DNA of 64,000 nucleotides, from NCBI GenBank assembly GCA_003152315.1, contig PLZV01000023.1:4905-68904 (forward strand), given 5' to 3'. The position numbers and the translations under genes were made by a program. The DNA comes from Verrucomicrobiota bacterium. GTDB lineage: Bacteria > Verrucomicrobiota > Verrucomicrobiia > Palsa-1439. A model generated the notes under the pieces. It was not told where the DNA came from. It saw nothing but the letters and a program-made list of their open reading frames with translations, and did not search any database. Shown piece after piece: positions 3,001 to 60,336 of the stretch; position 1 is the first letter of the stretch; the number at the start of each line of letters is the position of its first letter.

Positions 3001-3328
3001 TTGTCCCGTAGAGATTGCCGTCAATGCCCTGGATCAGCGGCGCTCCTGGGCTGGCGCCATCAGAGTTACCGGTGAAGAGATGCAAATTGGTGAGCACCCC
3101 CGTTGAGCTAATTCGGAAGACCGTGCCGTTGCCCCCCGTCCCGCCTGCTGTGGCCGTTCCATAGAAAAAGCCGTCGCCGGCTTGGATTAGTCCCGCCACT
3201 GGCGAGTGGCCGTCCGTACTGCCGGTAAATAGACTCAACGGGGTGAGAGTGACCGCGCTAGCATCGTCAGGGGAACCCCCCAATGCCAACAGGAGCAAGG
3301 GCACGATAACTACACACAGCCTTTTCAT
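1..3328 (-). CDS. Large secreted protein (3' end beyond window): GloVer-type choice-of-anchor beta-propeller repeats, right-handed beta-helix, choice-of-anchor Q-like segment, [FY]YR domain, FN3
   Basis: Not in the ORF track because no stop lies inside the window. Manual translation from ATG 3328 (alternative ATG 3352) gives signal peptide MKRLCVVIVPLLLLALGG, ~7 repeats of F(T)G..DG..P.A.L.Q..DG.FYGT...GG....GTVF, a PFSHIQDGL/NCIF beta-helix, DIEGQPRGNPPDMGCYE, DSDRDGIPDWW...FYRIDISY and an FN3 module (GYQVYRDG...YCYTIVAYDN). Confidence 0.85.
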   Translation of the reverse strand, partial: MKRLCVVIVPLLLLALGGSPDDASAVTLTPLSLFTGSTDGHSPVAGLIQAGDGFFYGTATAGGTGGNGTVFRISSTGVLTNLHLFTGNSDGASPGAPLIQGIDGNLYGTTFFGGAHDAGVVFKITPAGTLTTLWQFTGGADGSEPIAALVQGNDGNFYGTASQGGAGNAGTVFRITPPVVFTNLPAVFTNLYSFTGGADGGIPAAGLILGLDGSFYGTTSAGGTGGNGTIFKITSLGTLTTLYRFLGGAGDGSGPEAGLIQVNSTNFMGTTYFGGTYDNGVAFRLNITGTASNTVTILHTFTGGADGANPVAGLMLANDGQYYGTASGGGSVGNNGTIFRTDSKGTFTNLYTFTGLTDGAVPLAGLVQDTNGYFYGTCSAGGTADNGNVFQLVLALYVSATNTNDPLANGNIAHPFSHIQDGLNAATNLDTVLVLNGVYSGTGNTNLDFFGRSIAVRSVNGPSNAVIDCQFTGGGFWLHDGEGNSSVIDGFTIKRAASNIAAIYLESGSPTINNCIFQGNGGEVLRGNPVSFSATPTAVNGCLFAQNVGVVVDVGSGEVDLQNSLFVSNQNTCVNAVVNDSYATIRNCVFRLNQGTVIHDGEFYGRVSISIADSLIQTNAGTACSLQNGTVSDSTIEDNQGDGYDEVSSGHGNSGIVSMSNVLIQHNNGFGLNAAGDASVANCTFSSNGGIGLQAAPRTGFGPNGELPQSGTFTYCLVTGNGGGGMGGNSQCTFDSCVSSFNSTGGIMGCGGNYVNCLVENNLGPAVALNCSGGSAILNNCTAVNNPGLASLGSGNSATLYNSISWGNGANPVGTLGNSFLGASYSDIQFGTGQTWFGTGCIDADPQFVSGMDSHLTVSSPCLAAGIFSNSPALDIEGQPRGNPPDMGCYEVSKADSDRDGIPDWWMLRYFGHTTGLTNDDSLANDDADGTGQNNLYKYVVGLDPTNPASVFLLQVTAVTNQPAQYNLTFSPWDGRRTYSPQFTTDLVEGVWLPLPGYTGPVTNGNQVTITDINAIGPQRFYRIDISYSTVANTTIAPSIPSGGMATAVSISEVTITWAASTDFSGFGVAGYQVYRDGVLVMTTTENNFSESGLSANTLYCYTIVAYDN

Positions 3329-3565: not shown

Positions 3566-3641
3566 TGGAGCCGGCGATCAGACTTGAACTGATAACCTGC
3601 TGATTACAAATCAGCTGCTCTGCCAATTGAGCTACGCCGGC
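3566..3641 (-). tRNA. tRNA-Thr (TGT)
   Basis: Reverse complement GCCGGCGTAGCTCAATTGGCAGAGCAGCTGATTTGTAATCAGCAGGTTATCAGTTCAAGTCTGATCGCCGGCTCCA: cloverleaf, anticodon TGT, GTTC T-loop, CCA end. Confidence 0.97.
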
Positions 3642-3727
3642 AACCGTAACGACTTGAAATATGCCATTTCGGAAGCGCTTAGTCCAGCGCCACGAAGGGA
3701 GTAGTCACCGGGAGCAGACGCCGCTTG

Positions 3728-5848: not shown

Positions 5849-8800
5849 ATGCCTGTGAAACGAGCCACGACGCTCTTTTTGACCTTTCTTCTCGGCTTGC
5901 CCGCCATCAGTCTCGCTGATCCCGGTAACGTAGTTTCCTGGTTTAGCAATTCGCTGAATGAACTCACGTTCACTTGTGCAACCGCTGTTGTGAAGCTGAA
6001 CCTGGTGGATGCGAATGTCGCCCGGGTGCGCCTGGAGCCAAGCGGAGTGGCTTTCAACACGAATGTTTCCTTCACCGTCATCAAGAACTGGGTTCTCCCT
6101 CCGATCACCGTGGTTGACGGGAGCACGCTGACCGTCACCACTTCGGGCCTGCGGGTGGACGTGTCCAAAACACCGTTCCACCTCACGTTCCGCAAGCCGG
6201 ACGGCACACTGTGGCTGACCGACACCAACGCCACCGGCTTCACCATCACCCCCAGCGGTTCCATCACCAACCTGAGCGAGACGTTTGGCATGCCGGGTGG
6301 CGAGCAGTTTTACGGACTCGGGCTCGTGCTCGGCAAGCCCCTGAGCTATCGCGGACAGACGCGCACACTTTATAACGCGCGCAGCGGATTCTCGTCGGGG
6401 GCCATGACGGACATGGCGGTGCCTCTGATGGTGTCATCGAAGGGCTACGGTGTGTTCGTGGACAATACGTTCTCACAGACCTGGGATTTTACCCTCTCCA
6501 GCACCACGCAATGGCGCGCGTTGGTTACTTCCGGTGAGTTGAATTACTACTTCATCGGTGGAAACACCCCGGCGGATGCGTTGAATCGGTATGGGCAAAT
6601 CGTCGGCACCGCGCCTGTCGCGCCCCGTTGGGCAATGGGATACATGCAGTCGAAGTATGGGTATCGCAACTGGTCGCAGATGTACACGGCGGTGAGCACA
6701 TTCCGGACGAACGACCTGCCGGTCGATACACTGATTCTGGATTTGTATTGGTTTGGGTCGCCGAGCGTGATGGGCGGACTCACGTGGGACAACACGAATT
6801 TTCCAAATCAGTCCAGCAACCTGACGGCGCTGGCGAATTTAGGTGTCAAAACCATCAATATCCACGAGGAATACATCAACAACGCCAATCAGCCCGCGCT
6901 TGGCAATTTCAACACGGCGGCGGCGGCGCATTATCTACTGACCACCGACGCGGCGATGACGACACCGAGCATCCAGGTGAACAACGGGTTTTACAACACG
7001 GCCGGCTATGTCGATTTTTCCAACCCGTCGGCGCGCGGCTGGTGGTTTTCGAAGATCAAGCCCTTGTATGACGCGGGCATTGCCGGCTTCTGGACGGACC
7101 TTGGCGAGCCGGAACAGGACAACGCGAATGATTTTCTTTTTGGCGGACATCGCGAGTCGGAGATGCACAACGTGTACAACCTTCTGTGGCATCAGGGACT
7201 GGCGGAAGGATTTGCCACCAACTACCCCAATGCGCGGCTCTACATCCTGAGTCGGTCGGGGTTTGCGGGCGATCACCGGTTTGGCGTCGGACATTGGACG
7301 AATGACACCGGCGCGGATTGGACAACTTTCGCGGCGCATTTGAATGCGATCTGCAATTATGGTTTGTCGGGCTTGAACTATTTCGGCAGCGACATCGGCG
7401 GGTTCACGGGAACGCCGACCGATGAACTGTACGTTCGATGGTTTCAGTTTGGAGCATTTTGTCCGGTGTTTCGCGCACACGGCATGGACAGCAAGCCGGT
7501 GGCGCCGTACGAGTTCGATCTGTTCGTGCAAGATCATTGCCGCAACATGATGAAGTTGCATTATCGCCTGTTGCCGTACGAGTACACGATGGCGCGCGAG
7601 ACGTTTGACACAGGAATCCCGATGGATCGCGCGCTACCGCTGGCGTTCCCAAGCGACACCAATGGTTTCATCAATGGCTCCCAGTTCATGTTCGGGTCGA
7701 ATATCATGGTCGCGCCCGTCAGCACACAGGGAGCGGGTTCACGGTCGGTGTACCTGCCGGCGGGAAACTGGATCGATTTGTGGGGTGGACAGGCTCTCAC
7801 CGGGCCAGTGACGACGAATTGGGCCGCACCGATCTCCCAGATCCCGGCGTTCTATCGCGACAACTCAATTACGCCTCTCGGGCCGTACGTCCAATCGAGC
7901 CAGTTTGACGATGGAACGGTGCGCGGGTTACGCGTGTATTGCAGTACGAATGCCAGCGGCACCGTTTACGATGACGATGGCGTGTCGACCGGATTTCGCT
8001 CCAATCAGTTTGCCACGACGTCGATCAGCGCGGCGGCGTTGAGCAACAGTGTGGCCCTGAACATCGGCAGCGCGGTGGGCTCCTATACCGGTCAGCCAGC
8101 GCAACGAATGTGGCAGGTGGAAGTGTATTGCACGAATGCTGTTTCCGACGTGGTCGCGGACGGCGTGTCGTTGGCCAGCTTCACCAGCGCGGAATCGCTG
8201 ACCTCGGCTCCGTCAGGTTACTACGTGGACGGCGCGGAGCATCTGGTACGGATGGTGATACCGTCGGCCCCGATCACGCAATCGCATCTGGTAACAACCT
8301 ATCTCAACCAGACATCGCCACCCCCGTATGAAGCTCGGATTAACGGTGGCGGCCGTCCCTATCTCGACCGCGGCGGAGCGATGTGGGTGGAAGATCGCGC
8401 CTATCATGCGGGCTCGTTTGGTATCAATGGTGGTGCCAGTAATATGGTCGCTAACGCGATTGCCGGCACGGATGACGATGTCCTCTACCAGTCGGAACAC
8501 CTCGGTGCGACCTTCACGGCGCTCTTCGATTGTCCGAATGGCACCTACGAAACAACCTTGTACGATGCCGAGACTCGCTGGAACGCCCCCGGTCAGCGGA
8601 TTTTTAATGTATCCATCCTGGGCCAGCAAGTCCTGAGCAACTTCGACATCTTCGCCGCCGCAGGTGGGTCCAACAAGGCGGTCGTCGTCACGTTCACCAA
8701 CATCGTCTCCAGCGGACAACTCGAAATCGACTTCAACGCTGTCGCCACCCCATCAGAAACAAACGCCCGCGTCTCCGCCATTCGTGTCAGAAAAATCGCC

Positions 8801-13395: not shown

Positions 13396-14319
13396 ATGTC
13401 GATGGTGATCACTGCCCCAACACCGATCTCGCCCGCCGCCACCCCTCTGGGCTGGATCGGCACCGGGGTCATGGGCCTGTCGATGTGCGGTCATCTTCTC
13501 AGCAAAGGCTATGCCATTACGGTCCACAACCGCACGAAGTCCAAGGCTCAACCCTTGCTAGACAAGGGCGCGCAGTGGGGCGATTCGCCTCGGGCCGTTG
13601 CGACTCAATCGGACGTCCTCTTCACCATGGTTGGTTATCCGCGCGATGTGCGGGAAATTTATTTCGGCGAGAGTGGCGTGCTCGCGGGCGTGAAACCCGG
13701 CGGCCTTGTCATTGACATGACCACGACCGAGCCCAGTTTATCGAAAGAGATTTACGCAGCCGCCAAAGCGAAAGGCGTTGACGCCATCGACGCGCCGGTT
13801 TCTGGTGGCGATGTCGGCGCGCGCAATGCCACGCTCTCCATCATGGTCGGCGGCGATGCGGGAGCCGTCGAGCGCGCGCGGCCGCTGTTGGAAGTCCTCG
13901 GCAAGACCATCATTCACCAGGGCGGCGCGGGCGCCGGCCAACATGCCAAGATGTGCAACCAGATTGTCATCGCGGGGACGATGATCGGCGTTTGCGAAAG
14001 CCTGCTCTACGGACACAAGGCCGGACTCAATCTCGAGACCATGCTGCAATCCATTCGCGGCGGCGCTGCGGGCTGCTGGAGTCTCGACAACCTTGCCCCG
14101 CGCATCCTGCAACGCAATTTCGTACCGGGCTTTCTCGTGGACCACTTCGTCAAGGACATGGAGATCGCCCTCGCGGAAGCCGAGCGCGCAGGCCTTGTGT
14201 TACCAGGATTGAAACTGGTAGACGAACTCTACCGCACGCTCCAAGCGCAGGGACACGGTCGTAGCGGCACGCACGCGTTGTACCTGGCGCTGGAAGCAAT
14301 GTCACAAAAGCCGGCCTGA
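13396..14319 (+). CDS. NAD(P)-dependent beta-hydroxyacid dehydrogenase (3-hydroxyisobutyrate DH / tartronate semialdehyde reductase family)
   Basis: [32 protein letters not shown]. Upstream TTGACA-18-TAGTTT suggests the true start may be ATG 13402. Confidence 0.9.
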
Positions 14320-15783
14320 GCGCAGTAATTCCTCCAACCGCTGCTGTCGCTGGCGTGCCACTATATATTGACGTGAGAATTGCAATCGCGGATGGATCAC
14401 GCGGCCCGCAGGCGGCGGGGGCACCGCGACACCCAATTCCTCCAGCGCGAACACGGCCGCCCCTCGTAGCGACGCCTCGGGTTCACTGCAAACCATCAGG
14501 CGGCGACCAAGCACGTCGGCCAGCCGTTGCATGTCCGCCGGCGACTTCTGGATGCCGCCCGAAATCGCGAACTTTCGGATGGGCAACAATTCGGCAATCT
14601 GCGCCAACCGCTGAAAGACCGCCTCCCTCGTGGCCTGCAGAATATCCAGCGCCGAACTGGAATTCTTCAGTCCGACAATTACACCGTGCAAATCCTCCGG
14701 CCACGTGGGGGCGCGCTCGCTTACCCAAAACGGCAGCACGGTCAGTCCATGCAAAGGCGCAGGCCGCGCCGCTAGCGCGCGCTCCAGTTCCTGCGAATCA
14801 CTTGGCAGATTCAATTGGCGCAGGCACCACGCGCGCAGATTGCCCGCGTTGCTCACCGCGCCGCCGATGAGCAGGCGCTCGGCATCGACGCGATAACAGA
14901 ACAATCCAAACGGCGCGCGCGCCCGCTGGACGCGTCTCACCAGTCGAATCGCCGCGCTCGTCCCGCAGTTCAGCGCGGCCACACCCGTCTTCGTGGCGCC
15001 CGAGCCCAGATTGCTTGCCGCGCCGTCGCCGATGGCCGGAAACCACAGGGCCTCGCGCAACTCCGGAAACTTGCGCCCCCAGCGAGTCGACATTCGCAGA
15101 GGTTCTTCGCTGAGCAAGTTGAGTTTTTTCGGGGAAATACGGCAGCGCTTGAGAAGTCGTGTGTCCCATCGGAGTGCAGCGGGATTGAACAACCCCGTCC
15201 CGCTGGCCATGGCGTAACTGCACCGCGCGTCACCGCAAAGTTCACGCTGCAGCCATTCGGCGGGTGATACCCAGCGCGCCACGCGCGCGAAAAGTTTCGG
15301 CTGCGTGCGCCGCAGCCAAACTAATTTCGCGGGCCAGAATGATGAACGCAACATGCAACCCGTCCGCGCGTGTACCGCGCGCTCGGAGAATTCCGCGCGC
15401 AATCGCGCCGCGTCTTCGCGGCAGCGCGAATCCGCCCACGTGTAAATCGGCGTCAACGCTCGTCCACTTTCGTCCGCGCCGAGCAAACTGTGCCAGAAAC
15501 AGGACGTGCCAACGGCAATGATCGGGCGCAGGCGAAGTGTCCGGTCGGCGTGATACGAGCGCAGCGTCAGCACCAGGCAGCGGAACAAGGTTTGTCGCAG
15601 TGTTTGCGGTGACAGCTCCGCGCCGCCGTCCGCCGTGACCCGCAACGCATACGCTTCCTGTGCCGTCGTGCGAACGAGCCGCCGCGCGCGCGCATCGAAC
15701 AACGCGGTGCGCAGCGACGAGGTGCCGATGTCGATGGCCAGGATCACTGCCTGCGATTGCTCACGCGAAAGGCTGCGCTGCAT
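14302..15783 (-). CDS. gntK: Gluconokinase, FGGY carbohydrate kinase family
   Basis: [74 protein letters not shown]. Confidence 0.85.
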
Positions 15784-15838
15784 GCTGAACCGATAGCCAA
15801 TTCCCGCTGAAAAGTCGATTTCTTCGAGACACAGATTT
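15754..15838. repeat. 85-bp direct repeat, copy A (gluconokinase upstream region plus first 10 codons)
   Basis: Matches 18094-18178 at an offset of 2340 bp with 6 mismatches by manual alignment. Confidence 0.93.
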
Positions 15839-15847
15839 ATGGACGCA

Positions 15848-16786
15848 TCACCAACCAACCTTCGATAGCCATTGCACCACATCCTTTCCGCTCCACGAAT
15901 CCGTCAACGGCGACCTGTTGCCTATAGCAAGCAATTCCTGAGAGCGCTCCCATTCATCCAACTTGATATTCGTGTCATGGGAAAACACCGGGGCAATGCG
16001 GCGGTAGGTATCATTCAGGAGATTGCGACATTGAAAATCCGCGATGCCCATGCTCGCATCGAACAACAGGCTGATCATGGGCTTGGCCCACTGGGCCAGA
16101 CCCCAATCCAGGTTATCGCCCTTCAAGTAGCTGAGATTTGTTCCCGTGCCGAGGGACAGCAGATAAATCTCATTGAGTTTGGGTGCGCGATCGGTGTTGC
16201 GGCTGTCCTGGGTTTGAGCCAACGCTGCCAGGCTGGGATTGTTGGCGACCACGCCTCCGTCAATATAGCTGCCGTGCGAGGGAAAGTAGGTCGGCGCGGC
16301 GCTTGTGCTTAGCGCCACATCCACCACCGATTCGTCTCCGTCGGAATCCTCGCCGGGAAAGTTGTGAAAGAACTTCGGTTGCCACGTTCGCTTCGTGTTA
16401 TCCGGGTCGGCATCGTCCAGATTGAAGGACGGAATCAACACTCGCTTTCCCAGATCCTTCAGTTTCGTGCCCTTGAAAATGCCCGTCAAAATCGTGTCCA
16501 AGCCTTTCTGGTCGTAATCCGCGCCGACGAGGCCACCCACGTCGCGAATGTCCTTCAGCCATGAATCATCAAAGATCGCTTTCCCGTTGTTCTGGTAGAG
16601 CGCAATCATTTCATCCACTGATTTCCCAGCGGCCAGACCCAGCGCGATGATGCCGCCCGTGGAAGTGCCCGCGAGCAAATCGGCGTCCTTGATGAGATTG
16701 GGGATTTTTGCTTCCAGGCGTTTCAGGATGGCCAGCGTGACCAGACCGCGAATGCCGCCTCCGTCGAATGAGAGTATGCGATACAT
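15848..16786 (-). CDS. Patatin-like phospholipase
   Basis: DGGGIRG, GTSTG (catalytic Ser), AAPTYF, DGGVVANNP (catalytic Asp); AAGGA RBS. Confidence 0.93.
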   Translation of the reverse strand: MYRILSFDGGGIRGLVTLAILKRLEAKIPNLIKDADLLAGTSTGGIIALGLAAGKSVDEMIALYQNNGKAIFDDSWLKDIRDVGGLVGADYDQKGLDTILTGIFKGTKLKDLGKRVLIPSFNLDDADPDNTKRTWQPKFFHNFPGEDSDGDESVVDVALSTSAAPTYFPSHGSYIDGGVVANNPSLAALAQTQDSRNTDRAPKLNEIYLLSLGTGTNLSYLKGDNLDWGLAQWAKPMISLLFDASMGIADFQCRNLLNDTYRRIAPVFSHDTNIKLDEWERSQELLAIGNRSPLTDSWSGKDVVQWLSKVGW

Positions 16787-16796
16787 GGTGTTCCTT

Positions 16797-16979
16797 TCAT
16801 CGTTCGGTCCGTTTTACCAAAAACTGAGATTGCGTAATGTGTCCCATCAACACGCTGGCCGGTTCGTCGTTCGGGTCTTGGGGGACGAGCTGGCCGCGGA
16901 AGGTTTTGGCGAGGAGCGAGGGCGCGAGCGCAGACACTTGTGCAAGCGCTTTCTCAAACTGTGCAGATTCTCGAAGCAT
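16797..16979 (-). pseudogene. Isolated type I RM specificity subunit (HsdS) C-terminal tail mini-ORF, copy 2
   Basis: SLLAKTFRGQLVPQDPNDEPASVL matches the conserved HsdS end (SILAKAFRGELVPQDPNDEPASVLLERI); no target-recognition domains present. Confidence 0.8.
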
Positions 16980-17057
16980 ATTCAGATCAATGCCGCCGAC
17001 GGATAAAATGATAGAAACGGCCAAGATCAATACTGATCCCGCCAAGAAACGGAATGC

Positions 17058-17966
17058 TTACCGATACCCATCGAGGGCCTCAGCCAAACTGCGTACTTGC
17101 CCTGCAATCGGCAAGAGATCACGAACTAGGCGGATGGATTCGTCCAAGAGATGCTGGTCGAGATTCTTGGTGTGCCTCCCGGTCTTGGAATTACGCGGCA
17201 CGTCCCGTTCGCTATAGAGTTCCGCGACAGAATTGTTCACATAATCCGGTGATGGTTCACTGAGATCCTGTGCGAGTTCGAAGTCCACCAATCTTGCAGT
17301 CAACTCTCCCGCATCGTTCAAGCTGAGGATGATATTGGGCGGCATCGGATCGTTGTGGAGTAGACCGAGACCATTGGCCTGATCCAGCTCCCGGTGCAAT
17401 TGCTGGAGCGCGGCCAATACCTCCGCCAGCAACTCCCTGTCAAACCCTACGATCTCCAGATCATAGTTGACGTACTGACCCGTCTGTATTGCGAGGGGCA
17501 CGCCGCTAATGAAATCCATAATCAACACATCATTGCGTGTCACTCGCAGTTCCGCCTGACGGGCGGGAACGCCCCCCTGATCCACCAGCAATCGAATTGA
17601 ATCCTCGGTGGACAAAGCCTTGGGTCCAAACACAAAGCCACGGGATCGAAAGCGTTCCAGCAACCGTCGTTCGTGTTCCAGGTAATAGCCGCGTTCACAG
17701 AAGTAGAGAGGGTTCTCGCCCACCCCCATCCCCAGAATCTTGATACAATGCTGGCAGCCTGCCTTCCCATACAGCCCCGCCTTGAATCCGGGGGCGAACC
17801 GAATCCACCCGGAGTTCTTCAACGCCGACAACATCTCATCATAAACCCAATAGCCCGAGGCCAGATGATACACACGGCGATCACCGTCAATGGAAACAAG
17901 AGCAGGTTCTCGCGCCATTTCCTGAAAACGCCGCTTGCTGAGAGGTTGAGGAAGGGTGGGTTTCAT
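17058..17966 (-). CDS. Protein-kinase-like fold protein (possibly 3' frameshifted)
   Basis: CIKILG (beta3 Lys), MDFISG, LLHNDPMPPNII (catalytic loop), LVDFELA. Confidence 0.75.
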   Translation of the reverse strand: MKPTLPQPLSKRRFQEMAREPALVSIDGDRRVYHLASGYWVYDEMLSALKNSGWIRFAPGFKAGLYGKAGCQHCIKILGMGVGENPLYFCERGYYLEHERRLLERFRSRGFVFGPKALSTEDSIRLLVDQGGVPARQAELRVTRNDVLIMDFISGVPLAIQTGQYVNYDLEIVGFDRELLAEVLAALQQLHRELDQANGLGLLHNDPMPPNIILSLNDAGELTARLVDFELAQDLSEPSPDYVNNSVAELYSERDVPRNSKTGRHTKNLDQHLLDESIRLVRDLLPIAGQVRSLAEALDGYR

Positions 17967-17976
17967 ATAACGCAGC

Positions 17977-18123
17977 TCATTTCCGGGATTGTTCGATGCG
18001 CTCCAGCAATATGCTGGGAGGTTCGTCGTTCGGGTCTTGGGGAACCAGCTGGCCGCGGAAGGCGCGGGCGAGGAGCGAGGGGATGAGGGCCGACGATTGT
18101 TCACGCGAAGGGCTGCGCTTCAT
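17977..18123 (-). pseudogene. Chimeric mini-ORF: gluconokinase-like first 10 codons fused to HsdS C-terminal tail, copy 1
   Basis: MKRSPSREQS (compare gluconokinase [10 protein letters not shown]) followed by SALIPSLLARAFRGQLVPQDPNDEPPSILLERIEQSRK. Confidence 0.8.
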
Positions 18124-18178
18124 GCTGAACCGATAGCCAATTCCCGCCGAAAAGTCGATTTCTTCGAGATGCAGATTT
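18094..18178. repeat. 85-bp direct repeat, copy B
   Basis: Near-identical to 15754-15838. Confidence 0.93.
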
Positions 18179-18230: not shown

Positions 18231-18271
18231 GTGCGCCCATAGCTCAATTGGATAGAGCGTTGGTCTACGGA
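18231..18271 (+). repeat. attL: 41-bp copy of the tRNA-Arg(ACG) 5' half
   Basis: GTGCGCCCATAGCTCAATTGGATAGAGCGTTGGTCTACGGA is identical to 47190-47230; identity ends at the end of the anticodon loop. Confidence 0.95.
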
Positions 18272-18399
18272 TTCAAACCGACAGTTTTAGCTGATGTTTG
18301 CTCACCCCCTCTGGAGTAAACAAAACCAATCGACACAGGGGTTTCCTGCATGTTGGACGTTTGCTCGTGTTTGCCTGAAGCCACTGAAATTCGGCCGAT

Positions 18400-18421
18400 A
18401 GATTACAACAAAAGATTGCAA
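18400..18421 (+). repeat. Putative integrase arm-binding sites (left pair)
   Basis: AGATTACAA (18400-18408) and AGATTGCAA (18413-18421), 13-bp period, same as the pair at 47115-47136. Confidence 0.7.
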
Positions 18422-18913
18422 CACATCGTGTGTGACTCTCGACTTTCTCATCTACTGGAGTGCGTTAGAGTCAGGCTTGCCGACTTTGCCGATCTTTTGG
18501 ACAGCGACACGGGAAACAACTCGATGACCGCGTGTGATCAAAAAACTCGTTCTTGCTGAATTTCTTCGGGGAGCATCGGGGCGAGGTACATCCCTGCCTT
18601 GGAATCGAAGGCTTACATCACCGGCAGAGTCCACGGTGAACTGTTACAGAGAATCGTATCCGGCTGACGGAGCACGTATGTTGAGATCGGTTCCTGAGCA
18701 GACGGCTAAGACGAGGATGGCAGTGACCCATCCGCCCGCTACTACTGCGTGTGGCTGGTACCGTAGAGGCGAATCCTATCATCGCCTCTGGACTCATGAA
18801 GCGGTCGGCTCACATTCTGTAGCCCCAGACTAGAAACTCAAGGGGCTTGAAAAGGCGAAGTCACGTCAAGTTTAGGCATTCGCTTGGCTACGTACGGTGA
18901 AAATGTTCTGCTT

Positions 18914-34464: not shown

Positions 34465-35226
34465 ATGGGAAACCTCAACGGAAAACGCGCACTCGTCACG
34501 GGTGGCGGCCAGGGACTTGGATACAGCATCGTGGAACAGTTGCTCACCGCCGGCGCGGACGTGGCCGTCCACTATTTCTCCAGCGAGACCGGCGCTCGCG
34601 AACTGGAGGCGCTGGCGCAAAAACGTGGTCGCCGGGCCGAAGTGTTTCGCGCCGATTTGACGAAAGAAACCGAAGCCGCCGCGCTGGTGGTTAGCGCCAC
34701 GAAGTTTCTCGGCGGCCTCGACGTGTTGGTGAACAATGCGGGCGATCTCGTCGAGCGGCGCACAATCCAGGAAGTGGACGCCGCGTTTTGGGAACGGGTC
34801 ATCAATGTGAACGTCACCTCGATGCTGTGGGTCACGCGCGCCGCCGTGCCGTGGCTGGAAAAGGCCGGGCAAGCCAGCATTGTAAATCTTTCCTCGCTGG
34901 CCGGTCGCAAAGGCGGTCATCCTGGCTCCCTTGTTTACTCCACGGCCAAGGGCGCGGTGCTCACGTGGACGCGGGCGCTTGCCACCGAGCTCGCTCCCCG
35001 GGGAATTCGCGTGAACTGCGTCGCGCCGGGTTTCATTCTCGGCACGAGGTTTCACGAGACGCATACTTCCGAGGACAGCGCGAAGCAGACCATTAAGGGT
35101 ATCCCGCTAGGCCGCGCGGGCTCACCGGAGGACATCGCGCGTGCCGTGGTTTATCTGGCCTCGGAATTTGACGGGTTCATTACCGGTGCGACCCTCGACA
35201 TCAACGGTGGCGTTTATGCGGCGTAA
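34465..35226 (+). CDS. SDR oxidoreductase, probable DEH (4-deoxy-L-erythro-5-hexoseulose uronate) reductase
   Basis: TGGGQGLG, NNAG, SLAGRKGGHPGSLVYSTAKG, APGFILGTRFH, FITGATLDINGG resemble alginate-pathway DEH reductases; gene context agrees. Confidence 0.8.
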   Translation: MGNLNGKRALVTGGGQGLGYSIVEQLLTAGADVAVHYFSSETGARELEALAQKRGRRAEVFRADLTKETEAAALVVSATKFLGGLDVLVNNAGDLVERRTIQEVDAAFWERVINVNVTSMLWVTRAAVPWLEKAGQASIVNLSSLAGRKGGHPGSLVYSTAKGAVLTWTRALATELAPRGIRVNCVAPGFILGTRFHETHTSEDSAKQTIKGIPLGRAGSPEDIARAVVYLASEFDGFITGATLDINGGVYAA

Positions 35227-35233
35227 TCGACCC

Positions 35234-38200
35234 ATGCGCATTAGATCCCTGGTTGTCTTTTTCCTTGCCGCCGCGGTTTTACCCGTCGCACTGGCAGCGG
35301 AACCGATTTCAAAAACTCCTTCCGAAGATGCCATCATCAAAAACTTTCACTCGTTGGGGCTGATCAACGGCCAGACAAACATCTTCCGGTGCGCGTGCCC
35401 GGTGATGGATGTGGCCGAAGAGATGAAGGGCGCGAAGCCTACGGAGAAGGATTTGGAATTGGCCCGCGAGCGGATGCAGCATCTCCGGGATCTCGGCGTC
35501 CGTACGGTAATTTCGTTCGAACATCAAGACCCGCCGAAAGAAAACGAGACGGACGTGGAACACAGGGCCGTCGCCTTGGAGCAGATTGCCGCCAAAGAGG
35601 TGGGGCTGGCCTATGTCGCCTATCCGATGTCGAACAAGGGCAAGGATTCCTTTGAAGACATGTCGGACGATGCGGTGATGAAGCTGCTCGATCCCATCAG
35701 CGAAGACATTTTCAAATTCACCAGAACCGGCGGCGTGGTGTTTCACTGCAAATCAGGCAAAGACCGTACTGGAATCATGGCGGGCTATCTGCGGCTAAAG
35801 TACCAGCATTGGACGGCTGATGAAGCCATCGCCGAGATGCGACGTTACGGCCATGTTTGGAACAAACTGGCGGACGACGGCGCCGCGAACTCGTGGCATG
35901 AAAATCATCTGCGCACCATAGCAAAAATCCTGAACCCGCTTGGGCAATCATACCAAAGGCTGGATAACGGCTGGGAATTTTATCAGGGCGCACTCGGTAG
36001 CCCCTGGGAAATCTGGCGCGGCGACAAGGCCGCCGACAATATCACATGGCAGCCCGTCACGCTGCCGCATTGTTTCAATGCCCGCGACTCGGTTGATCCC
36101 GATGTGCACTATTACCAGGGGCCCGGCTGGTATCGCACGCGGCTCAAGGTGGAGAACCTATTTCCAAACGGACGGACCTTGCTGCACTTCGACGGCGCGG
36201 GACAAAAATCCCGGGTCTTTGTTGGAATGGAAAAGGTCGGCGAACATGTCGGCGGCTACGACGAATGGACCGTGGACATTACGGACGCGGACGCTCGCGC
36301 CGCTACGAATTCATTTTCCGGCGTCAGCACGCCCGTGGCGGTGCTTTGCGATAATTCCCGCGATGCGGAGATGATTCCTTCTGATCAAAGCGATTTTAAT
36401 CGCTATGGCGGCCTTTACCGGCACGTTTATCTCGAATATGTCCCGGCGATTTCGCTGGAGCGGGTCCACGTCGAGCCAAAACTCGTAGCGGATGACAAAG
36501 CTTCCATCAAAGTCCGGGCACGACTTCACAATCCAACGGCAGCCAACGACGAAGTCAAACTCGCGATCGAAGTCCGCGACCCGCAGGGCAACCGTCTCCA
36601 GATTACGACGAACAAACTGTCCCCGTGGTCGGGGGAGAAGGAAATCGCCGCATTGGAAATCGCCAAACCGCAACTGTGGTCGCCAAATTCACCGGCTCTT
36701 TACAGTTGTGCCGTCACGCTACAATCGCCGCAAGGCGAACAGCAAATAACCGAAAAGTTCGGCGTACGTTCCTTTGAATGGGTCGAGCATGGACCCTTCA
36801 AGTTGAATGGCGAACGTTTGCTATTGCGCGGCACGCAATATCACCAGGATCACGCCGGTGTAGCTGCGGCAGTGCCGGATGACGTCGTCCGCAAGACGTT
36901 CCAACAGATTAAAGACATGGGCGCGAATTTCGTCCGACTCGGCCATTACCAGCAATCACCGCTCGTGCTGGAGATGTGTGATCAACTCGGGTTGCTCGTG
37001 TGGGAGGAAATCCCATGGTGCCGCGGTGGTCTTGGCGGCGAGCGCTACCAACAACAAGGCCGCGACATGCTGCGGAACATGATTGACCAGCATTACAATC
37101 ATCCGGCGGTGATTCTCTGGGGCCTGGGCAATGAGAACGATTGGCCCGGTGATTTCGAAACCTTTAACACCAATGCCATTCGCGCTTACATGACGGAGTT
37201 GAACACGCTCGCGCATCAGATCGACCCGTCGCGCAAGACATGCATCCGCCGTTGCGATTTCTGCAAGGACATCCCGGACGTGTATTCTCCGAGCATCTGG
37301 GCCGGGTGGTATTCCGGACGTTACACCGAGTATCGCGGGTCAGTGGAAAAATGGATCGGCAACGTGCCGAGATTCTTCCATGCCGAGTGGGGCGGGGACA
37401 GTCACGCCCGCCGTCATTCGGAAGACCCCGAGAAATTCCTGCAAGAAGTTGCCACCGGCCAGGGCACAGCGGAAACCGCCAAAGCGTACAAGTCGACGGG
37501 CGGCAAGGCACGCGCGTCTCTGGACGGCGATTGGTCGGAGAGTTACATCGTCAATCTCTTCGACTGGCATCTCAAGGAGCAGGAGCAGATGACGAACCTG
37601 ACCGGCAGTGCGCAATGGATTTTCAAGGACTTTGCCACACCGTTGCGCCCGGAGAATCCCATTCCACGCGTGAATCAAAAGGGCCTGGTCGAACGCGACG
37701 GCACGCCGAAGGAAGGCTACTACGTTTTCCAGAGTTATTGGGCCGACAAGGCGATGGTCCATGTTTACGGGCACACCTGGCCGGTCCGTTGGGGCAAACC
37801 CGGCGAGGAGAAGCTCGTGAAAGTGTATTCGAACTGCCGTGAGGTGGAGCTGTTCGTTAATGGCATCTCGGTTGGTGTGAAGCAGCGCAACAGCACCAAC
37901 TTCCCTGCCGCCGGTCTACGCTGGGCCGTGAAACTGAATGACGGCCCGAACACGCTGCGCGCCGTGGGCCATCGTGACGGGGTGGAAGTGAGCGATGACA
38001 TTTCCGTCAGCTATCAGACTGCGGCTTGGGACAAGCCGGCCAGGCTCGCGCTCAGGGAAATCTCGCGGAGCAACGACGTCGTCACCGTCCAGGCGCTCGT
38101 ATTCGACAAGGACGGCGTGTCTTGCCTTGACGCGACGAACGTCGTCCGCTTCGGTTTGGCTGGTGACGGTCTTTTGCTCGATAATCTCGGCACATCCATT

Positions 38201-39445
38201 GGTTCGCGCGTGGTGCAACTTTACAACGGTCGCGCGCAGATCAGCCTCCGGCTTGCCAGCGGCGAAGCCGTGGTCAGCGTGGCGAGCGTTGGTTTGGAAA
38301 CGCAATTCCTGAGCGTAACCAATGCACCAACTGCCTCTGTGAAACTGACGCTCGACGTGGGCGCGATTGACCGCGAGCGGATCTTGAAGGCCGCCAGCGC
38401 CGCGCTCGGGAGCGAACCGCTGACCATTACCAAGTTCCGCGCAAAGTTGAGCGGGGGTGGGCTGAATGATTTTTATTCCAACGGTGATTACTGGTGGCCC
38501 GACCCAACCAAGCCCGACGGGTTGCCGTACATCCAGCGCGACGGCGAATCGAATCCCAGCAACTTCTCAGAGCACCGGCTTGCCATCCGCAATCTGCGCG
38601 ATGCGGTGGCCGCGCTCGCCGCTGCCTACAAGGCCACTGGCGACGATCGTTACGTGACCAAGGCGGTCGAGTTGCTACGGGTGTTCTTTCTGGATCCACA
38701 GACGCGGATGAATCCGCACTTGAAATACGCGCAAGCGATTCCGGGTAAGTCCCCCGGTCGCGGTACCGGCATCATTGACGGCCTGCACCTGATCGAATTG
38801 CCGCTCGCGATTCAGGCGATGCAGAAGTCACCTGCCTTTCCGCCCGAAGTGTTGGCCGGACTGAAACAGTGGTTTGGCGACCTGGCGGAATGGATGGTAA
38901 CGAGCAAGAACGGACTGGAGGAGGCTGCGTCCAAAAACAACCACGCCGTTGCGTTCTACCTGCAACTCGCGGTCTACGCCGGTCTCTCGGGGGACGAAGC
39001 GAAACTTGCGGAGTGCCGTCGGCAATTCAAAGAAGTGTTCGTCCCGAACCAAATGGCGGCGGACGGAAGTTTCCCGGCTGAACTCAAGCGGACCAAGCCT
39101 TACGGTTACTCCATCTTTCAACTCGATAACATGGCCACACTTTGTCAGGTGCTTTCAAACGACCGCGACGACTTGTGGCGGTTTGAGCTTGCCGATGGTC
39201 GGGGCATTCAGAAGGCGATGGCGTATCTCTATCCGTTTCTGGCGGATAAATCGAAGTGGCCGCTCAAACCCGACGTGCAGGCGTGGGCCGACTGGCCTTC
39301 GCGCCAATCGTGCCTGCTGTTTGCCGGGCTGGCGCTGAATGAACAGCCGTATCTCGACCTCTGGCGCAATCTCCCGCCTGATCCAACCAACGCCGAAATC
39401 CGTCGCAATATTGCCATCACCCAGCCAGTCCTTTGGATAAAGTGA
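35234..39445 (+). CDS. Secreted tri-modular protein: Cys-based (CX5R) phosphatase-like domain, GH2, alginate_lyase (PL38-like)
   Basis: Signal peptide; FHCKSGKDRTG P-loop; GH2 motifs YYQGPGWY, YGGLYR, NFVRLGHY, WGLGNE; lyase motifs YWWPDP...GLPYIQRDG.SNP, TRMNPHLKYAQ, NNH, EL.RT.PYGYS.F.L. Confidence 0.85.
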   Translation: MRIRSLVVFFLAAAVLPVALAAEPISKTPSEDAIIKNFHSLGLINGQTNIFRCACPVMDVAEEMKGAKPTEKDLELARERMQHLRDLGVRTVISFEHQDPPKENETDVEHRAVALEQIAAKEVGLAYVAYPMSNKGKDSFEDMSDDAVMKLLDPISEDIFKFTRTGGVVFHCKSGKDRTGIMAGYLRLKYQHWTADEAIAEMRRYGHVWNKLADDGAANSWHENHLRTIAKILNPLGQSYQRLDNGWEFYQGALGSPWEIWRGDKAADNITWQPVTLPHCFNARDSVDPDVHYYQGPGWYRTRLKVENLFPNGRTLLHFDGAGQKSRVFVGMEKVGEHVGGYDEWTVDITDADARAATNSFSGVSTPVAVLCDNSRDAEMIPSDQSDFNRYGGLYRHVYLEYVPAISLERVHVEPKLVADDKASIKVRARLHNPTAANDEVKLAIEVRDPQGNRLQITTNKLSPWSGEKEIAALEIAKPQLWSPNSPALYSCAVTLQSPQGEQQITEKFGVRSFEWVEHGPFKLNGERLLLRGTQYHQDHAGVAAAVPDDVVRKTFQQIKDMGANFVRLGHYQQSPLVLEMCDQLGLLVWEEIPWCRGGLGGERYQQQGRDMLRNMIDQHYNHPAVILWGLGNENDWPGDFETFNTNAIRAYMTELNTLAHQIDPSRKTCIRRCDFCKDIPDVYSPSIWAGWYSGRYTEYRGSVEKWIGNVPRFFHAEWGGDSHARRHSEDPEKFLQEVATGQGTAETAKAYKSTGGKARASLDGDWSESYIVNLFDWHLKEQEQMTNLTGSAQWIFKDFATPLRPENPIPRVNQKGLVERDGTPKEGYYVFQSYWADKAMVHVYGHTWPVRWGKPGEEKLVKVYSNCREVELFVNGISVGVKQRNSTNFPAAGLRWAVKLNDGPNTLRAVGHRDGVEVSDDISVSYQTAAWDKPARLALREISRSNDVVTVQALVFDKDGVSCLDATNVVRFGLAGDGLLLDNLGTSIGSRVVQLYNGRAQISLRLASGEAVVSVASVGLETQFLSVTNAPTASVKLTLDVGAIDRERILKAASAALGSEPLTITKFRAKLSGGGLNDFYSNGDYWWPDPTKPDGLPYIQRDGESNPSNFSEHRLAIRNLRDAVAALAAAYKATGDDRYVTKAVELLRVFFLDPQTRMNPHLKYAQAIPGKSPGRGTGIIDGLHLIELPLAIQAMQKSPAFPPEVLAGLKQWFGDLAEWMVTSKNGLEEAASKNNHAVAFYLQLAVYAGLSGDEAKLAECRRQFKEVFVPNQMAADGSFPAELKRTKPYGYSIFQLDNMATLCQVLSNDRDDLWRFELADGRGIQKAMAYLYPFLADKSKWPLKPDVQAWADWPSRQSCLLFAGLALNEQPYLDLWRNLPPDPTNAEIRRNIAITQPVLWIK

Positions 39446-45982: not shown

Positions 45983-47098
45983 TTACGCCTTCGCCGCCAT
46001 TGGCACCACGTTGGCGGGTTCGGCTGTGGATGCGCCCCAGTTCATGCGCTTCGCCATTGCGGCGCTGTGTTCGTCGCGCAAGTGGCCGTAGGTCTTGGCC
46101 ACGAGCAACCCGCCGCCTTTGTGACCGAGCCAGCCTGCAATCGTCTTGAAGTCAATCCCAGCTTCGATCGCGTTTGAGCAAAAGAAGTGACGCAGAGTGT
46201 GATGGTGAAAGTGCGGAAGCTTTGCTGTTTCACAGGCAGACGTGATGGCTTTCTTTGCGTTGTCAATCTGCACAATACGGTCGGTCGGTTCGGGTGGCTT
46301 GGCCAGTGAGGCCTGTAAGCGCAGAAGAAACTCTTCCAACGCGGGGAAAAGAGGAATCGTGCGCGCCTCGTGGTTCTTTGTGCCGTACTCGCCACCGGTG
46401 ATCGTGAAGTTCTTCAATTCAAGATTCACTTCGCCCCAAGTCATGGCCGTGGCCTCCCCAAGACGGCAGCCAGAATAGGCCAGCAGTTCGCACAGGTCAG
46501 CGGCCTCGTGATACCGAACGTCGGACTGGCGTAGCGTGTCCAACAGAGTTTTGAATTGTGCTTTCGTTGGGATGACGATCTTCGCTTGGTGTTGCTTCCG
46601 ACGCTCGGCCACCCTGGCAGGATTCTCCAGAATCAAACCCTCTCGCAGGGCGTAATCTAGAATCTGAATCAGTGTCTCCCTCTCGATGTTGAACGTGCGG
46701 GCCGACGCCGTCTTGTTCCGCGATGCGGCCCATGTATCGACCTGGCTCTTGTCGATAGCACGAACCGTGTTGGTGAAGTAGGGTCTTACTGCATTGATCG
46801 CTGCCTCGCGCCGCACACGGCTCGACCGCTTCATGCCGCCCCCGACCGTGTCCAACCAACGCTTGGCAAAGTCAACAAAGAGGATGGCCTTCCCTACTTT
46901 GGTGTTGAGTCGGGCAACTTTTTGGCGTAATGCTTCAAGGCGGCGACGTGCTAGTTCTTTGTCAGTGGTTTTGAGTGATTTCTTAACCTGATCGCCCTTG
47001 CGGGTGAAGATGCCGTAGAAGATGCCCGAATCCGCGGAGCGGTATAGGCAGGGGATGTTGGTTTTCTTCAAGACTTGGCTCTTGAGGGCGGCTTCCAT
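45983..47098 (-). CDS. Tyrosine recombinase/integrase
   Basis: Catalytic residues SGCRLGE (R), TKN (K), HTLRH (HxxR), LGHK, TYGH (Y); N-terminal arm-binding-like region SLKTTD...AR; adjacent to the tRNA att site. Confidence 0.95.
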   Translation of the reverse strand: MEAALKSQVLKKTNIPCLYRSADSGIFYGIFTRKGDQVKKSLKTTDKELARRRLEALRQKVARLNTKVGKAILFVDFAKRWLDTVGGGMKRSSRVRREAAINAVRPYFTNTVRAIDKSQVDTWAASRNKTASARTFNIERETLIQILDYALREGLILENPARVAERRKQHQAKIVIPTKAQFKTLLDTLRQSDVRYHEAADLCELLAYSGCRLGEATAMTWGEVNLELKNFTITGGEYGTKNHEARTIPLFPALEEFLLRLQASLAKPPEPTDRIVQIDNAKKAITSACETAKLPHFHHHTLRHFFCSNAIEAGIDFKTIAGWLGHKGGGLLVAKTYGHLRDEHSAAMAKRMNWGASTAEPANVVPMAAKA

Positions 47099-47191: not shown

Positions 47192-47268
47192 GCGCCCATA
47201 GCTCAATTGGATAGAGCGTTGGTCTACGGAACCAAAGGTTGCAGGTTCAACTCCTGCTGGGCGCGCCA
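47192..47268 (+). tRNA. tRNA-Arg (ACG); contains attR
   Basis: GCGCCCA...TGGGCGC acceptor stem, anticodon stem-loop TTGGT-CTACGGA-ACCAA, GGTTCAACTCC, CCA end. Confidence 0.97.
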
Positions 47269-57950: not shown

Positions 57951-59261
57951 ATGGGGAAAAACCTTAAGATTGCCCTTGGTTCGGATCACGGCGGCCTGGA
58001 ACTCAAGAATCAGCTTCTCGGTTATTTGCAGAGCCGGGGCTTTTTCGTGCAGGACTGCGGCACGCATAGCAAAGACGCCGTCGACTACCCGCGCATCGCG
58101 TACACGGTCGCGCGGCTGGTGGCGAGCGGGACGTGCGACCGCGGGATCATGGTGGATGGCGCCGGCATCGGGTCGGCAATGTCAGCCAACAAAGTCCGTG
58201 GTGTAAGGGCCGCTGCGTGTTACAGTGTCGCTTTGGCGAAGAACTCGCGCGAGCACAACGACGCCAATGTGCTGACGCTCGGCTCGGGCCAGACCAATTT
58301 TGAAACGGCCACGCAGATCGTCGAGACTTTTCTGGCGGGTGCATGTGTTGAAGAACGGCATCGAAAACGGGTACAACTGATCAATGCAATCGAGAACGGA
58401 CCCATTGAAACCGGAGCGCACCAGGCAACCTTGTTGGCCACGGTGGGAGAACCACGCGTGAGCGCCTCCCAGTCCGACCGCGAACGGATCGCCAAGCGCG
58501 TGCAGGAGCTTCTCGCGTCCCAGGGCAATCCGCCCATCGCGGCCACGGTGTCCCGACCGGGATTCTCGCCCGCGCAAATCGCCCAACTGATCGACCACAC
58601 TATTTTACGTCCAGACACCACGCGCGCGGACATCGAGCAGCTTTGCCGCGAGGCGCGCCAGGCAAAATTCTACTCCGTCTGCGTCAATCCCACGTGGGTC
58701 TCACTTGCGCGGCAGTTGCTCGAAGGCTCGAACGTCAAGGTCTGCTGCGTCGTCGGATTCCCCTTGGGCGCGCAGCCGCCTGAAACGAAGGCGATGGAAG
58801 CGCGTGCGGCCATCCGCCAGGGCGCTAAGGAAATTGACATGGTGATCAACGTCGGCGCGCTCAAGAGCGGCGATGACGAGATGGTATTGCGGGACATTCG
58901 CGGGGTGGTCGAGGCCTGCCGTGACGGCAGCGCGAAATGCAAAGTGATTCACGAGACGTCGCTCCTGACCAATGAGGAGAAGGCGCGCGCGTGCGAGCTT
59001 TCCGTCAAGGCGCACGCGGACTTCGTCAAAACCTCCACGGGGTTCAGCTCGGGCGGCGCGACGGTGGAAGACGTGTCGCTGATGAGCCGCATTGTTCGCG
59101 ACAAAGGGCTCGGCGTGAAGGCGTCGGGGGGAGTGCGTTCGCTGGCGGAATTGCTGAAAATGGTGGCGGCGGGCGCAACGCGCATCGGCACGTCCAGCGG
59201 CCTGAAGATTTTGAAGGAAGCCTCCGGGGAAGTTGTTTCGTCGGCAGGCGCGAAGTATTAG
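57951..59261 (+). CDS. deoC: RpiB-DeoC fusion (ribose-5-P isomerase B + deoxyribose-phosphate aldolase), BMC cargo
   Basis: N-terminus [32 protein letters not shown]; C-terminus [40 protein letters not shown]. Confidence 0.93.
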
Positions 59262-59283
59262 ATGGACACGAAAGGAATGAAAC

Positions 59284-59919
59284 ATGGCCGATCTACGCTC
59301 TTACATTTTTCTCGATAGCTTGCAGCCGCAGGTGGCGTCATTCTTCGCCACGGTCTCGCAGGGTTTCCTGCCGATCGCGGGACAGGCTTCACTCTTCGTC
59401 GAGATTTCGCCCGGCATGGAGATCAATCGGGTCACCGACGTGGCGCTCAAGTCCACGAAAGTGACGCCCGGCATGCAGATTATTGAGCGCCTGTATGGAA
59501 TGCTCGAGATTCATTCCGAGTCCCAGGCCGACGTGCGCCAGGCGGGCGCGGCCATCCTCGAAGCGCTAAATCTCAAGGAGGAGGGCCGTTACAAGCCCCA
59601 GATTTTCAGCAGCAGCATCATCCGTCGCATTGACGACTATCATACGATGCTCATCAACCGCACGCGCCACGGCAATATGATCCTGCCCGGTCATACACTC
59701 TTCACGATGGAATGCGCGCCGGCCGCGTACGCCGCGTACGCCGCGAACGAGGCCGAAAAGGCCGCGGAGATCAACATCCTGGAGATTCGCGCGTTCGGCA
59801 GTTTCGGCCGCATTTATCTTGGGGGCGACGAGAAGGACATCGACGTTGCCGCCAAGGCCGCCGAGCAGGCGATCAACAGCGTCACCGGCCGCGAGATGAA
59901 GGGCAGTGGCGGCGGCTAG
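59284..59919 (+). CDS. BMC-T shell protein (circularly permuted, CsoS1D/CcmP-like)
   Basis: LRSYIFLDSLQPQ, IERLYGMLEIH, YAAYAANEAEKAA, GSFGRIYLGG. Confidence 0.92.
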   Translation: MADLRSYIFLDSLQPQVASFFATVSQGFLPIAGQASLFVEISPGMEINRVTDVALKSTKVTPGMQIIERLYGMLEIHSESQADVRQAGAAILEALNLKEEGRYKPQIFSSSIIRRIDDYHTMLINRTRHGNMILPGHTLFTMECAPAAYAAYAANEAEKAAEINILEIRAFGSFGRIYLGGDEKDIDVAAKAAEQAINSVTGREMKGSGGG

Positions 59920-59970
59920 ACTGCAGCAGACAATTTGAACCGATCACAAAAAACGTAAGGAGATCCGCAC

Positions 59971-60267
59971 ATGGCAGATGCATTAGGGTTGCTCGAAGCA
60001 CGTTCCTTCGCCGCGATGGTGGAAGGGGCCGATGCGATGGTCAAAGCCGCGAAGGTCGAACTCGTGAGCTATGAGAAGACCGGTGGCGGTTACGTCACGG
60101 CGGTCATTCGCGGCGATGTCGCCGCGGTGAAGGCCGCGACCGATGCCGGTCGCACGGCAGCCAGCCGCGTGGGCGAAGTGGTGGCGGTCCACGTCATCGC
60201 GCGTCCGCACGAGAATGTCGACGCCGTCGTCCCGCTGGGACGTGGCAACAAAGCTGCCAAGAAATAA
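59971..60267 (+). CDS. BMC-H hexamer shell protein (EutM/PduA-like)
   Basis: ALGLLE...ADAMVKAA...[19 protein letters not shown]...HVIARPH; strong AAGGAG RBS. Confidence 0.96.
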
Positions 60268-60280
60268 CAATTCACTCGGT

Positions 60281-60336
60281 GGACTGCTGATCGTTTGCGC
60301 CAACGCGGCGGCCAGCAGTCTTACCGGGAGTTTTTG
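60281..60336 (+). terminator. Stem-loop after the BMC-H gene (partial terminator or mRNA stabiliser)
   Basis: GACTGCTG...CAGCAGTC stem with a T-run shortly downstream. Confidence 0.45.

Follow-up and report, generated by a model that had tools for sequence, protein, structure and literature searches.

Why do two unrelated genes in a bacterial genome each stand directly behind a detached 3' end of a restriction gene? The question is raised by a short islet in a Verrucomicrobiota bacterium (GCA_003152315.1), where a kinase-like gene and a patatin-like phospholipase gene each follow a remnant, here called a tail, of hsdS, the specificity-subunit gene of restriction-modification (RM) systems of type I. 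The islet was analysed within a window of 64,000 nt (contig PLZV01000023.1, positions 4,905-68,904; contig C62 of genome G000), and the genome holding it comprises 4.89 Mb at 95.8% completeness. An earlier note on this DNA had proposed that the conserved hsdS 3' end is a reusable recombination handle by which cargo genes are stacked into a cassette-like array. Three parts of this proposal are retained here: the tails are derived from hsdS, the islet is foreign to its locus, and such tails recur elsewhere with varied cargo. The reusable handle and the array are not retained, in view of variable break points, tails of only 78% identity and cargo homologues without tails. The islet is probably a horizontally acquired mosaic of 2.34 kb that carries scars of deletion and recombination, not a working cassette system. 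Its cargo is two unrelated single-gene modules of the defence- or conflict-locus type.

Read 5' to 3' on the minus strand, on which all genes and repeat copies of the locus are given here, the order is hsdS tail 1, kinase-like gene, hsdS tail 2, patatin gene and the gene of an FGGY-family carbohydrate kinase (14302-15783; PF00370 and PF02782), which was the target of the insertion. Tail 1 (~34 codons) is part of a 48-codon fusion open reading frame (ORF, 17977-18123), where it continues in frame the start codon and ~14 codons of the FGGY gene. The kinase-like gene starts with the ATG at 17966 and has a main frame of 302 codons (17058-17966). Tail 2 (~55 codons) spans 16797-16986 and is followed by the intact patatin gene of 312 codons (15848-16786; PF01734, 1.7e-29). 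Both tails stop exactly 10 nt ahead of the start codon of their cargo gene. The ORFs and the sequence bear out the gene order and coordinates of the earlier note. They agree, too, with its remark that hsdR, hsdM and a target-recognition domain are missing from the window: Pfam scans of 36 large window ORFs revealed no HsdM or HsdR family, and the target-recognition domain PF01420 is matched at nine places on contigs C11, C34, C5 and C7 and at none on C62. On the minus strand neither a promoter-like site nor an Rfam family was found, and the two terminator-like sites there, with 2.7 expected from shuffles, are within chance.

The tails were identified as HsdS C-termini, as had been claimed from the letters alone, by PADLOC models and by alignment with real hsdS tails. 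Tail 1 matches 14 and tail 2 matches 16 PADLOC models of type I specificity subunits (Specificity_I; best E 4.9e-13 and 2.3e-12, respectively). The matched part is the C-terminus or its vicinity in the best-scoring models (e.g. positions 435-474 of 571), and in a few lower-ranked ones it falls on a central or N-terminal conserved stretch. A Pfam search of either tail ORF gave no match. Of the attributes of an HsdS protein the conserved C-terminal region is thus present, and the two PF01420 domains and the neighbouring hsdM and hsdR genes are absent. In the case of tail 2 the 82-aa ORF at 16797-17045 has to be read with care, as most of its N-terminal part is the 3' end of the kinase gene out of frame. 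Its hsdS-like part covers only about 16797-16986 and starts right after the true kinase stop; the span of 16797-16979 noted earlier for this tail correctly begins beyond the kinase-derived part. Over its last 16 codons tail 2 is off the hsdS consensus, and its sole in-frame ATG opens a 60-codon ORF without a recognisable ribosome-binding site.

The two tails also form a direct DNA repeat (16828-16948 and 17987-18107), which had been described as ~80 bp and is in fact longer, with 121 nt at 78% identity and common exact runs of up to 23 nt. No further copy was found in the 4.89-Mb genome, either as DNA or as peptide. The same identity of 78% is reached between tail 1 and a remnant in the genome of another family. 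The C-termini of the genome's own type I S subunits differ from the islet tails, and only one of them contains the first half of the motif. Seven matches of the tail peptide in phage records are mostly unannotated fragments and uninformative.

How the islet came to its place is indicated by a second direct repeat, which was missing from the earlier note. It bounds the islet with copy A (18081-18178) on the tRNA side and copy B (15741-15838) on the other, each of 98 nt, at 89% identity. According to alignments, the repeated segment is the conserved FGGY upstream region together with the start codon and ~14 codons. In copy A the FGGY reading frame passes without a shift into hsdS tail 1. The start of copy B lies 9 nt past the patatin stop, and this copy now forms the 5' end of the FGGY gene. 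A third copy was not found elsewhere in the genome. In the closest congener (G006), whose orthologous FGGY gene is 80-92% identical along its length, the gene is followed by a single copy of the 98-nt segment and directly afterwards by an intact tRNA-Arg, which corresponds to the empty site. In a second genome (G014) the FGGY gene likewise adjoins the tRNA. A DNA search of 40 relatives yielded, among the matches listed, none for the islet proper (15839-17997) and one that covers tail 1 at 17998-18081 (G038:C16). Judged from these sequence comparisons, the islet is a 2,340-bp insertion foreign to the locus, and this composite piece interrupts the FGGY gene within codon ~15, next to an integration hot spot at tRNA-Arg. 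Decay in situ of an intact RM operon, which the earlier note had named as a refuting outcome, was rejected because the congeners G006 and G014 show the empty site.

Over the 98 nt, copy A differs from the G006 segment by 9 mismatches, copy B from the G006 segment by 15, and the two copies from each other by 11. By this count the copies are no closer to each other than to the orthologue of another species, which disfavours a recent duplication in situ and mildly favours an import of copy B together with the islet. The stretch 18081-18107 is common to both repeat families, and in it copy A is similar to the FGGY 5' end as well as to tail 2. Since this junction zone is like both parents, the left joint lies in sequence that is alike by chance. 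Only two genes are present in the islet, and no recombinase, transposase or terminal inverted repeats were found in it. With regard to an integron-type cassette array, with its attI-linked integrase and attC imperfect inverted repeats, a repeat search revealed only two weak and distant inverted pairs of 24 nt, and no recombinase gene is found in or beside the islet. The features of a site-specific integrative element are absent, as the islet has no integrase of its own and is flanked by 98 nt of 89% identity, not by a short identical core. The only integrase in the window (45983-47098) is part of a separate tRNA-Arg island.

In its present position the islet lies between the native FGGY upstream region and the second FGGY start copy. 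Hence its transcription from the FGGY promoter is possible, and the 5' end of the FGGY gene is complete. Contigs from an RNA run, which stem from a related strain with 90-98% likeness, cover the patatin gene (15792-16677) and both islet junctions, and one of them crosses the junction of FGGY start and tail 1 (18057-18164). The kinase gene (16984-17975) is not covered, which is no evidence of its silence given that the strain is a related one. These contigs are a weak hint at transcription of the islet. No contig joins across the islet as expected for an empty-site allele.

The kinase-like protein belongs to a family of at least 113 proteins with 42-75% identity over the aligned parts (43-67% among 23 aligned). 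K62, H204-N205-D206, N211 and D228-F229-E230 are invariant in 24 sequences. These residues would supply the catalytic Lys, the His/Asp...Asn loop and the Asp-Phe-x metal-binding motif of the protein-kinase-like superfamily. In accordance with this, the predicted structure (predicted local distance difference test, pLDDT, 85) has its best fold matches in RIO2, the kinase domain of a class III lanthipeptide synthetase and Bud32/PRPK (Foldseek probability 1.0, template modelling score 0.35-0.45), and profile comparison gave a weak match to Ser/Thr kinases. The family comprises proteins of ~320 residues and is spread patchily over a metagenome-assembled genome of an Asgard archaeon, Chitinispirillaceae, FCPU426 and Verrucomicrobiota. 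The gene was found in none of 46 other genomes of the order, and no relatives were found on viral contigs. The closest homologue (P0002, 68% identity) is encoded on a 1.6-Mb contig. In a neighbour scan of 15 kinase loci no conserved partner gene was found; one homologue is located beside a type II RM pair and another near a MazF toxin. In part of the family the kinase is joined to CHAT, EAD7 or CAP12/Pycsar TIR domains, and P0081, P0085 and P0089 are among the fused or related proteins. Such fusions point towards a role in conflict systems, and the family is a candidate conflict-system kinase.

A C-terminal motif that is conserved in the homologues is missing from the 302-codon frame. The corresponding 26 codons were found in another frame at 16987-17067, right after the last conserved residues, so that the gene is frameshifted by one base, in the GGG run at 17067-17069. 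Contigs from three other peat metagenome runs, belonging to three studies and two different years, are identical and gapless across the frameshift (X4, 15000-17730; X5, 16823-17234; X9, 16887-17507). As three independent contigs are identical at the site, the frameshift is not an error of one assembly. In its present state the islet hence holds an intact patatin gene and a kinase gene with a 3' frameshift.

The patatin scores 215.3 bits against NF041079, the equivalog model for the lipase of the cyclic oligonucleotide-based antiphage signalling system (CBASS), just above the cut-off of 200. PADLOC, which the earlier note had recommended for a check, assigns the tails to Specificity_I models and the patatin to the CBASS phospholipase effector PDLC00757 (1.2e-68). 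GGGxRG, GxSxG and DGG motifs are legible in the translation, and we take these to be the signatures of the patatin family. A patatin effector of the CapV equivalog is thereby present. The adjacent cyclase is not, the neighbours being the kinase-like gene and the FGGY kinase gene, and the one cyclase model tried (PF18144, CD-NTase/SMODS) has no match in the genome. Of 400 genomes sampled from the phylum, nine encode homologues of the patatin at 46-56% identity, and there is one additional weak match. At these nine loci (L107-L115) the neighbours are housekeeping-like, different at each locus and include no cyclase, and PADLOC recognised none of 34 neighbouring ORFs. The CapV-like patatin clade may work without a CBASS cyclase.

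To what extent tails and cargo go together elsewhere was investigated from both sides. Four kinase loci from genomes and 21 from metagenomes, 25 in all, contain neither a tail nor a patatin gene, none of the nine patatin loci contains a tail or a kinase-like gene, and the 1.5 kb around each of 29 hsdS tails from the phylum revealed neither cargo gene. When 400 genomes of the phylum were searched with the single tail peptide, 35 of 38 matches fell in frames of at least 254 codons and represent real hsdS genes. A profile of 15 tails, which is more sensitive than the single peptide, was run on 400 genomes of the class. At least 60 matches below E 1e-6 were obtained, and those listed comprise three from the own genome and 57 others. 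Frames of less than 200 codons account for 13 of the 57: two lie at contig ends, one is a broken hsdS in an RM operon, one stands directly before hsdR, and nine are isolated. Eight of these nine (all but G453:C25) were inspected, and in four a co-directional gene follows within 20 nt of the remnant stop.

The genes behind the isolated tails are diverse. A congener (G005) holds two such tails. One (C2, L159, 3461-4960) ends 3 nt before the gene of a 419-codon coiled-coil/membrane protein, with a MazE-like antitoxin gene and a small ORF of no family nearby; the other (C15, L158, 1466-2949) ends ~16 nt before an OLD/GajA/AriA-like ATPase gene that is split into two ORFs. A further tail precedes the gene of a RES-domain protein (G456:C66). 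The richest locus is G633:C180 (L153, 2864-7113) with two tails and a third helix remnant (3005-3079, ~3580-3676 and 5858-5971). Within 3 kb they alternate with a 355-codon gene of no known family, a BD-FAE esterase gene and a GH43/32-like gene, the last of which begins at the stop codon of a remnant. The break points of the remnants vary between ~25 and ~85 codons, and some remnants are frameshifted. Two isolated hsdS fragments on plasmids adjoin transposases. Isolated tails before varied genes are a recurrent minority pattern, and the outcome that the earlier note had named as fatal to its idea, rare tails with invariant cargo, was not encountered. Full-text searches of the literature gave no account of isolated hsdS 3' remnants.

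For the origin of the islet we favour a history in three steps. Each cargo gene would formerly have been located immediately downstream (~10 nt) of hsdS in a type I RM operon. According to one study, defence genes are embedded between hsdS and hsdR at a site called a potential recombination hot spot (PMC12255303), and embedded genes are described as frequent in type I RM systems in another (10.1101/2024.01.29.577857). Deletions and illegitimate joins would then have removed the RM genes and left the last 34-55 hsdS codons attached to the downstream gene, sparing the stretch just upstream of a gene still under selection. The tails may have been kept since each ends 10 nt before the cargo start and would thus be part of the expression leader of the cargo. 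Finally, the composite piece would have entered the FGGY gene by recombination, with one side anchored by FGGY homology and the other attached through a short segment in which the hsdS tail is by chance similar to the FGGY 5' end. A duplication of 98 nt, covering the promoter and 5' end of the FGGY gene, would have resulted from this import, so that the upstream copy heads the islet as the mini-ORF of FGGY start and hsdS tail and the downstream copy restores the FGGY gene. We infer all three steps, embedding, deletion and import, and the mechanism is nothing beyond known recombination and gene decay.

Several observations weigh against this history. No donor locus was found in which an intact hsdS immediately precedes a homologue of the kinase or the patatin, so that we infer only that the genes were once embedded behind hsdS. 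Two tails on the same strand in 1.2 kb of the islet, and two or three in 3 kb of G633:C180, show a regularity that exceeds what random decay alone would give. In addition, the G633 genes behind tails encode carbohydrate-active enzymes, which are not typical RM-embedded genes. The difference between 9 and 15 mismatches in 98 nt is a weak pointer to the imported copy. A recombination break point in the FGGY gene was not found either, as a sliding comparison of G000 with G006 along this gene stays level at 79-92% identity without a step. Lastly, the apparent preference for 3' remnants may be an ascertainment effect. Only the conserved hsdS tail is recognisable alone, so this preference is expected from the method and is no argument either way.

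Among the rival explanations the recombination handle survives best, although we consider it unlikely. The conserved hsdS 3' end would here be a portable homology arm, and recombination between tails would move or stack the genes downstream of it outside RM loci. Two tails in the same orientation, each immediately ahead of a gene and with exact runs of up to 23 nt in common, are what such a process would leave. The alternation of remnants and genes in G633:C180, the nine isolated tails among 57 strong matches in the class and the close co-directional genes at four of the eight inspected are in line with it, as is the designation of the post-hsdS site as a potential recombination hot spot in PMC12255303. 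However, the tails are no more similar to each other than one of them is to a remnant in another family, and no resident hsdS of the genome carries the islet tail. The break point varies among remnants, and the upstream joints consist of the FGGY gene and the kinase stop codon, with no hsdS sequence. Direct repeats, moreover, favour the loss of the intervening gene, not stacking; the cargo homologues elsewhere stand without tails at all of the 25 kinase and nine patatin loci; and the islet has neither recombinase nor terminal inverted repeats. Deletion scars are favoured over the handle because the tails are only 78% identical, the genome lacks a partner hsdS, the upstream joints are to unrelated sequence and no common boundary is found elsewhere.

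That hsdS tails take part in moving the genes behind them at all is, in our estimate, improbable. Somewhat more doubtful still is the specific form in which, in this class, the hsdS 3' end and the gene a few bases behind it constitute a portable unit, with the tail acting as homology arm and as travelling expression leader. If this were true, isolated tails would flag formerly RM-embedded genes, and the arrays in G000 and G633:C180 would have been built by successive tail-directed insertions. Isolated hsdS tails would then also be a search handle for new defence genes such as the kinase family.

Very unlikely is a third explanation, by which the kinase-like gene and the CapV-like patatin gene are a single two-gene defence system of sensor kinase and lipase effector, with the tails incidental. 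Both genes are adjacent, co-directional and part of a single insertion. The patatin exceeds the CBASS lipase cut-off without a cyclase and would need another activator, and members of the kinase family are fused to effector or adaptor domains. The two genes nevertheless do not co-occur elsewhere, as none of 25 kinase loci has a patatin gene and none of nine patatin loci a kinase-like gene. Moreover, the remnant of a different hsdS gene between them implies separate origins, and the kinase gene is frameshifted in several independent assemblies.

The least probable of these readings, likewise very unlikely, is that the tail mini-ORFs are functional. They would either encode small decoy or regulator proteins with an affinity for HsdM or other RM subunits, or be leader ORFs that must be translated for the cargo 10 nt downstream to be expressed. 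For the expression of functional tail peptides, an alternative raised by the earlier note, nothing was found that would speak in favour. Both frames are open as far as the hsdS gene's own stop, which precedes the cargo ATG by 10 nt, and tail 1 has gained the FGGY promoter region and a start codon in frame, with an RNA-run contig of the related strain across this junction; an in-frame junction would, however, arise with a chance of one in three anyway. Tail 2 has lost the consensus in its last 16 codons and its 60-codon ORF lacks a recognisable ribosome-binding site. The tails of the genome's own type I S subunits are unrelated, and remnants elsewhere are very unequal in length and in some cases frameshifted.

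On its tRNA side the islet is adjoined by a genomic island of ~29 kb (18233-47268) that is integrated in tRNA-Arg(ACG). Its left end is a fragment of this tRNA on the plus strand (18233-18277), which consists of the 5' half only, matches the same half of the intact tRNA-Arg (47192-47268) without a difference and marks the original tRNA position beside the FGGY promoter. Owing to this copy it is the 5' half of the tRNA that serves as the direct repeat of the island, where a 3' half would be usual. The tyrosine integrase of the island (45983-47098, PF00589) abuts the 5' end of the intact tRNA. The island cargo is devoted to polysaccharide use, with alginate lyases, GH2, GH79-like and heparinase-like proteins, an SSF transporter and LacI. 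A 1434-codon ORF (35141-39445) combines tyrosine-phosphatase-like, GH2 and alginate-lyase domains in one protein. At the island site the congener G006 has an intact tRNA-Arg and no island. Three segments at the left end (18278-18424, 18531-18656 and 18655-18725) are multi-copy in the genome (e.g. on C57, C4, C11, C30 and C5) and are found with 72-92% identity in many congeners, without an Rfam match; possible identities are small repeat elements or the termini of a family of islands. Further along the window, the stretch 57951-62091 encodes an RpiB/LacAB isomerase fused to a DeoC-type aldolase, together with a BMC-domain shell protein and an aldehyde dehydrogenase, which suggests a bacterial microcompartment locus.

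If the islet is read as the scar of RM-embedded genes, it illustrates a route by which small defence-type genes leave RM operons and settle in metabolic loci together with a fossil of their former neighbour. Provided that isolated hsdS tails reliably mark formerly RM-embedded genes, conflict genes could be nominated at low cost by a kind of 'guilt by scar'. Candidates of this kind are the kinase-like family, with its CHAT, EAD7 and TIR fusions in some members, and the coiled-coil/membrane protein of the congener G005. A clean case is offered here, too, of a gene whose 5' end was rebuilt by the very insertion that interrupted it.

Four known systems can be compared with the islet. Homology-facilitated illegitimate recombination, a concept from natural transformation, imports foreign DNA that is anchored by homology on one side, usually with a deletion. 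The islet resembles its products in that one end lies in FGGY 5' homology, the other at a short patch of similarity, and no recombinase gene is present; it differs by the 98-nt duplication that was left, and the event is read here from its end product alone. With CBASS operons of the CapV type (NF041079) the islet shares a patatin of 215 bits against a cut-off of 200 and a PADLOC match of 1e-68. In contrast to them, the islet patatin has no adjacent cyclase, PF18144 is absent from the genome, and the nine relatives in the phylum have no PADLOC-recognised neighbour.

Several partial hsdS copies with repeats of conserved regions in one locus are also known from SpnIII/cod of S. pneumoniae, a phase-variable type I locus whose truncated hsdS copies recombine at conserved repeats (PMC4948785, PMC7394358). 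In loci of this type the copies keep their target-recognition domains, are usually inverted, lie beside hsdM and hsdR, often with a recombinase, and shuffle specificity. In the islet, by contrast, both copies point the same way, recognition domains are missing and unrelated genes separate the copies. Closest are the genes embedded in type I RM operons. DarTG2 sits between hsdS and hsdR in the RRDM island of enteropathogenic Escherichia coli (EPEC), according to PMC12255303, and PrrC is listed with many others as RM-embedded in 10.1101/2024.01.29.577857. Unlike these, the islet keeps only the last 34-55 hsdS codons and sits inside a sugar-kinase gene, with no hsdM, hsdR or target-recognition domain found nearby (PF01420 on the contig, window ORFs by Pfam). 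Common to both is a non-RM conflict gene that begins a few bases past the end of the hsdS frame, with a cargo that varies from locus to locus.

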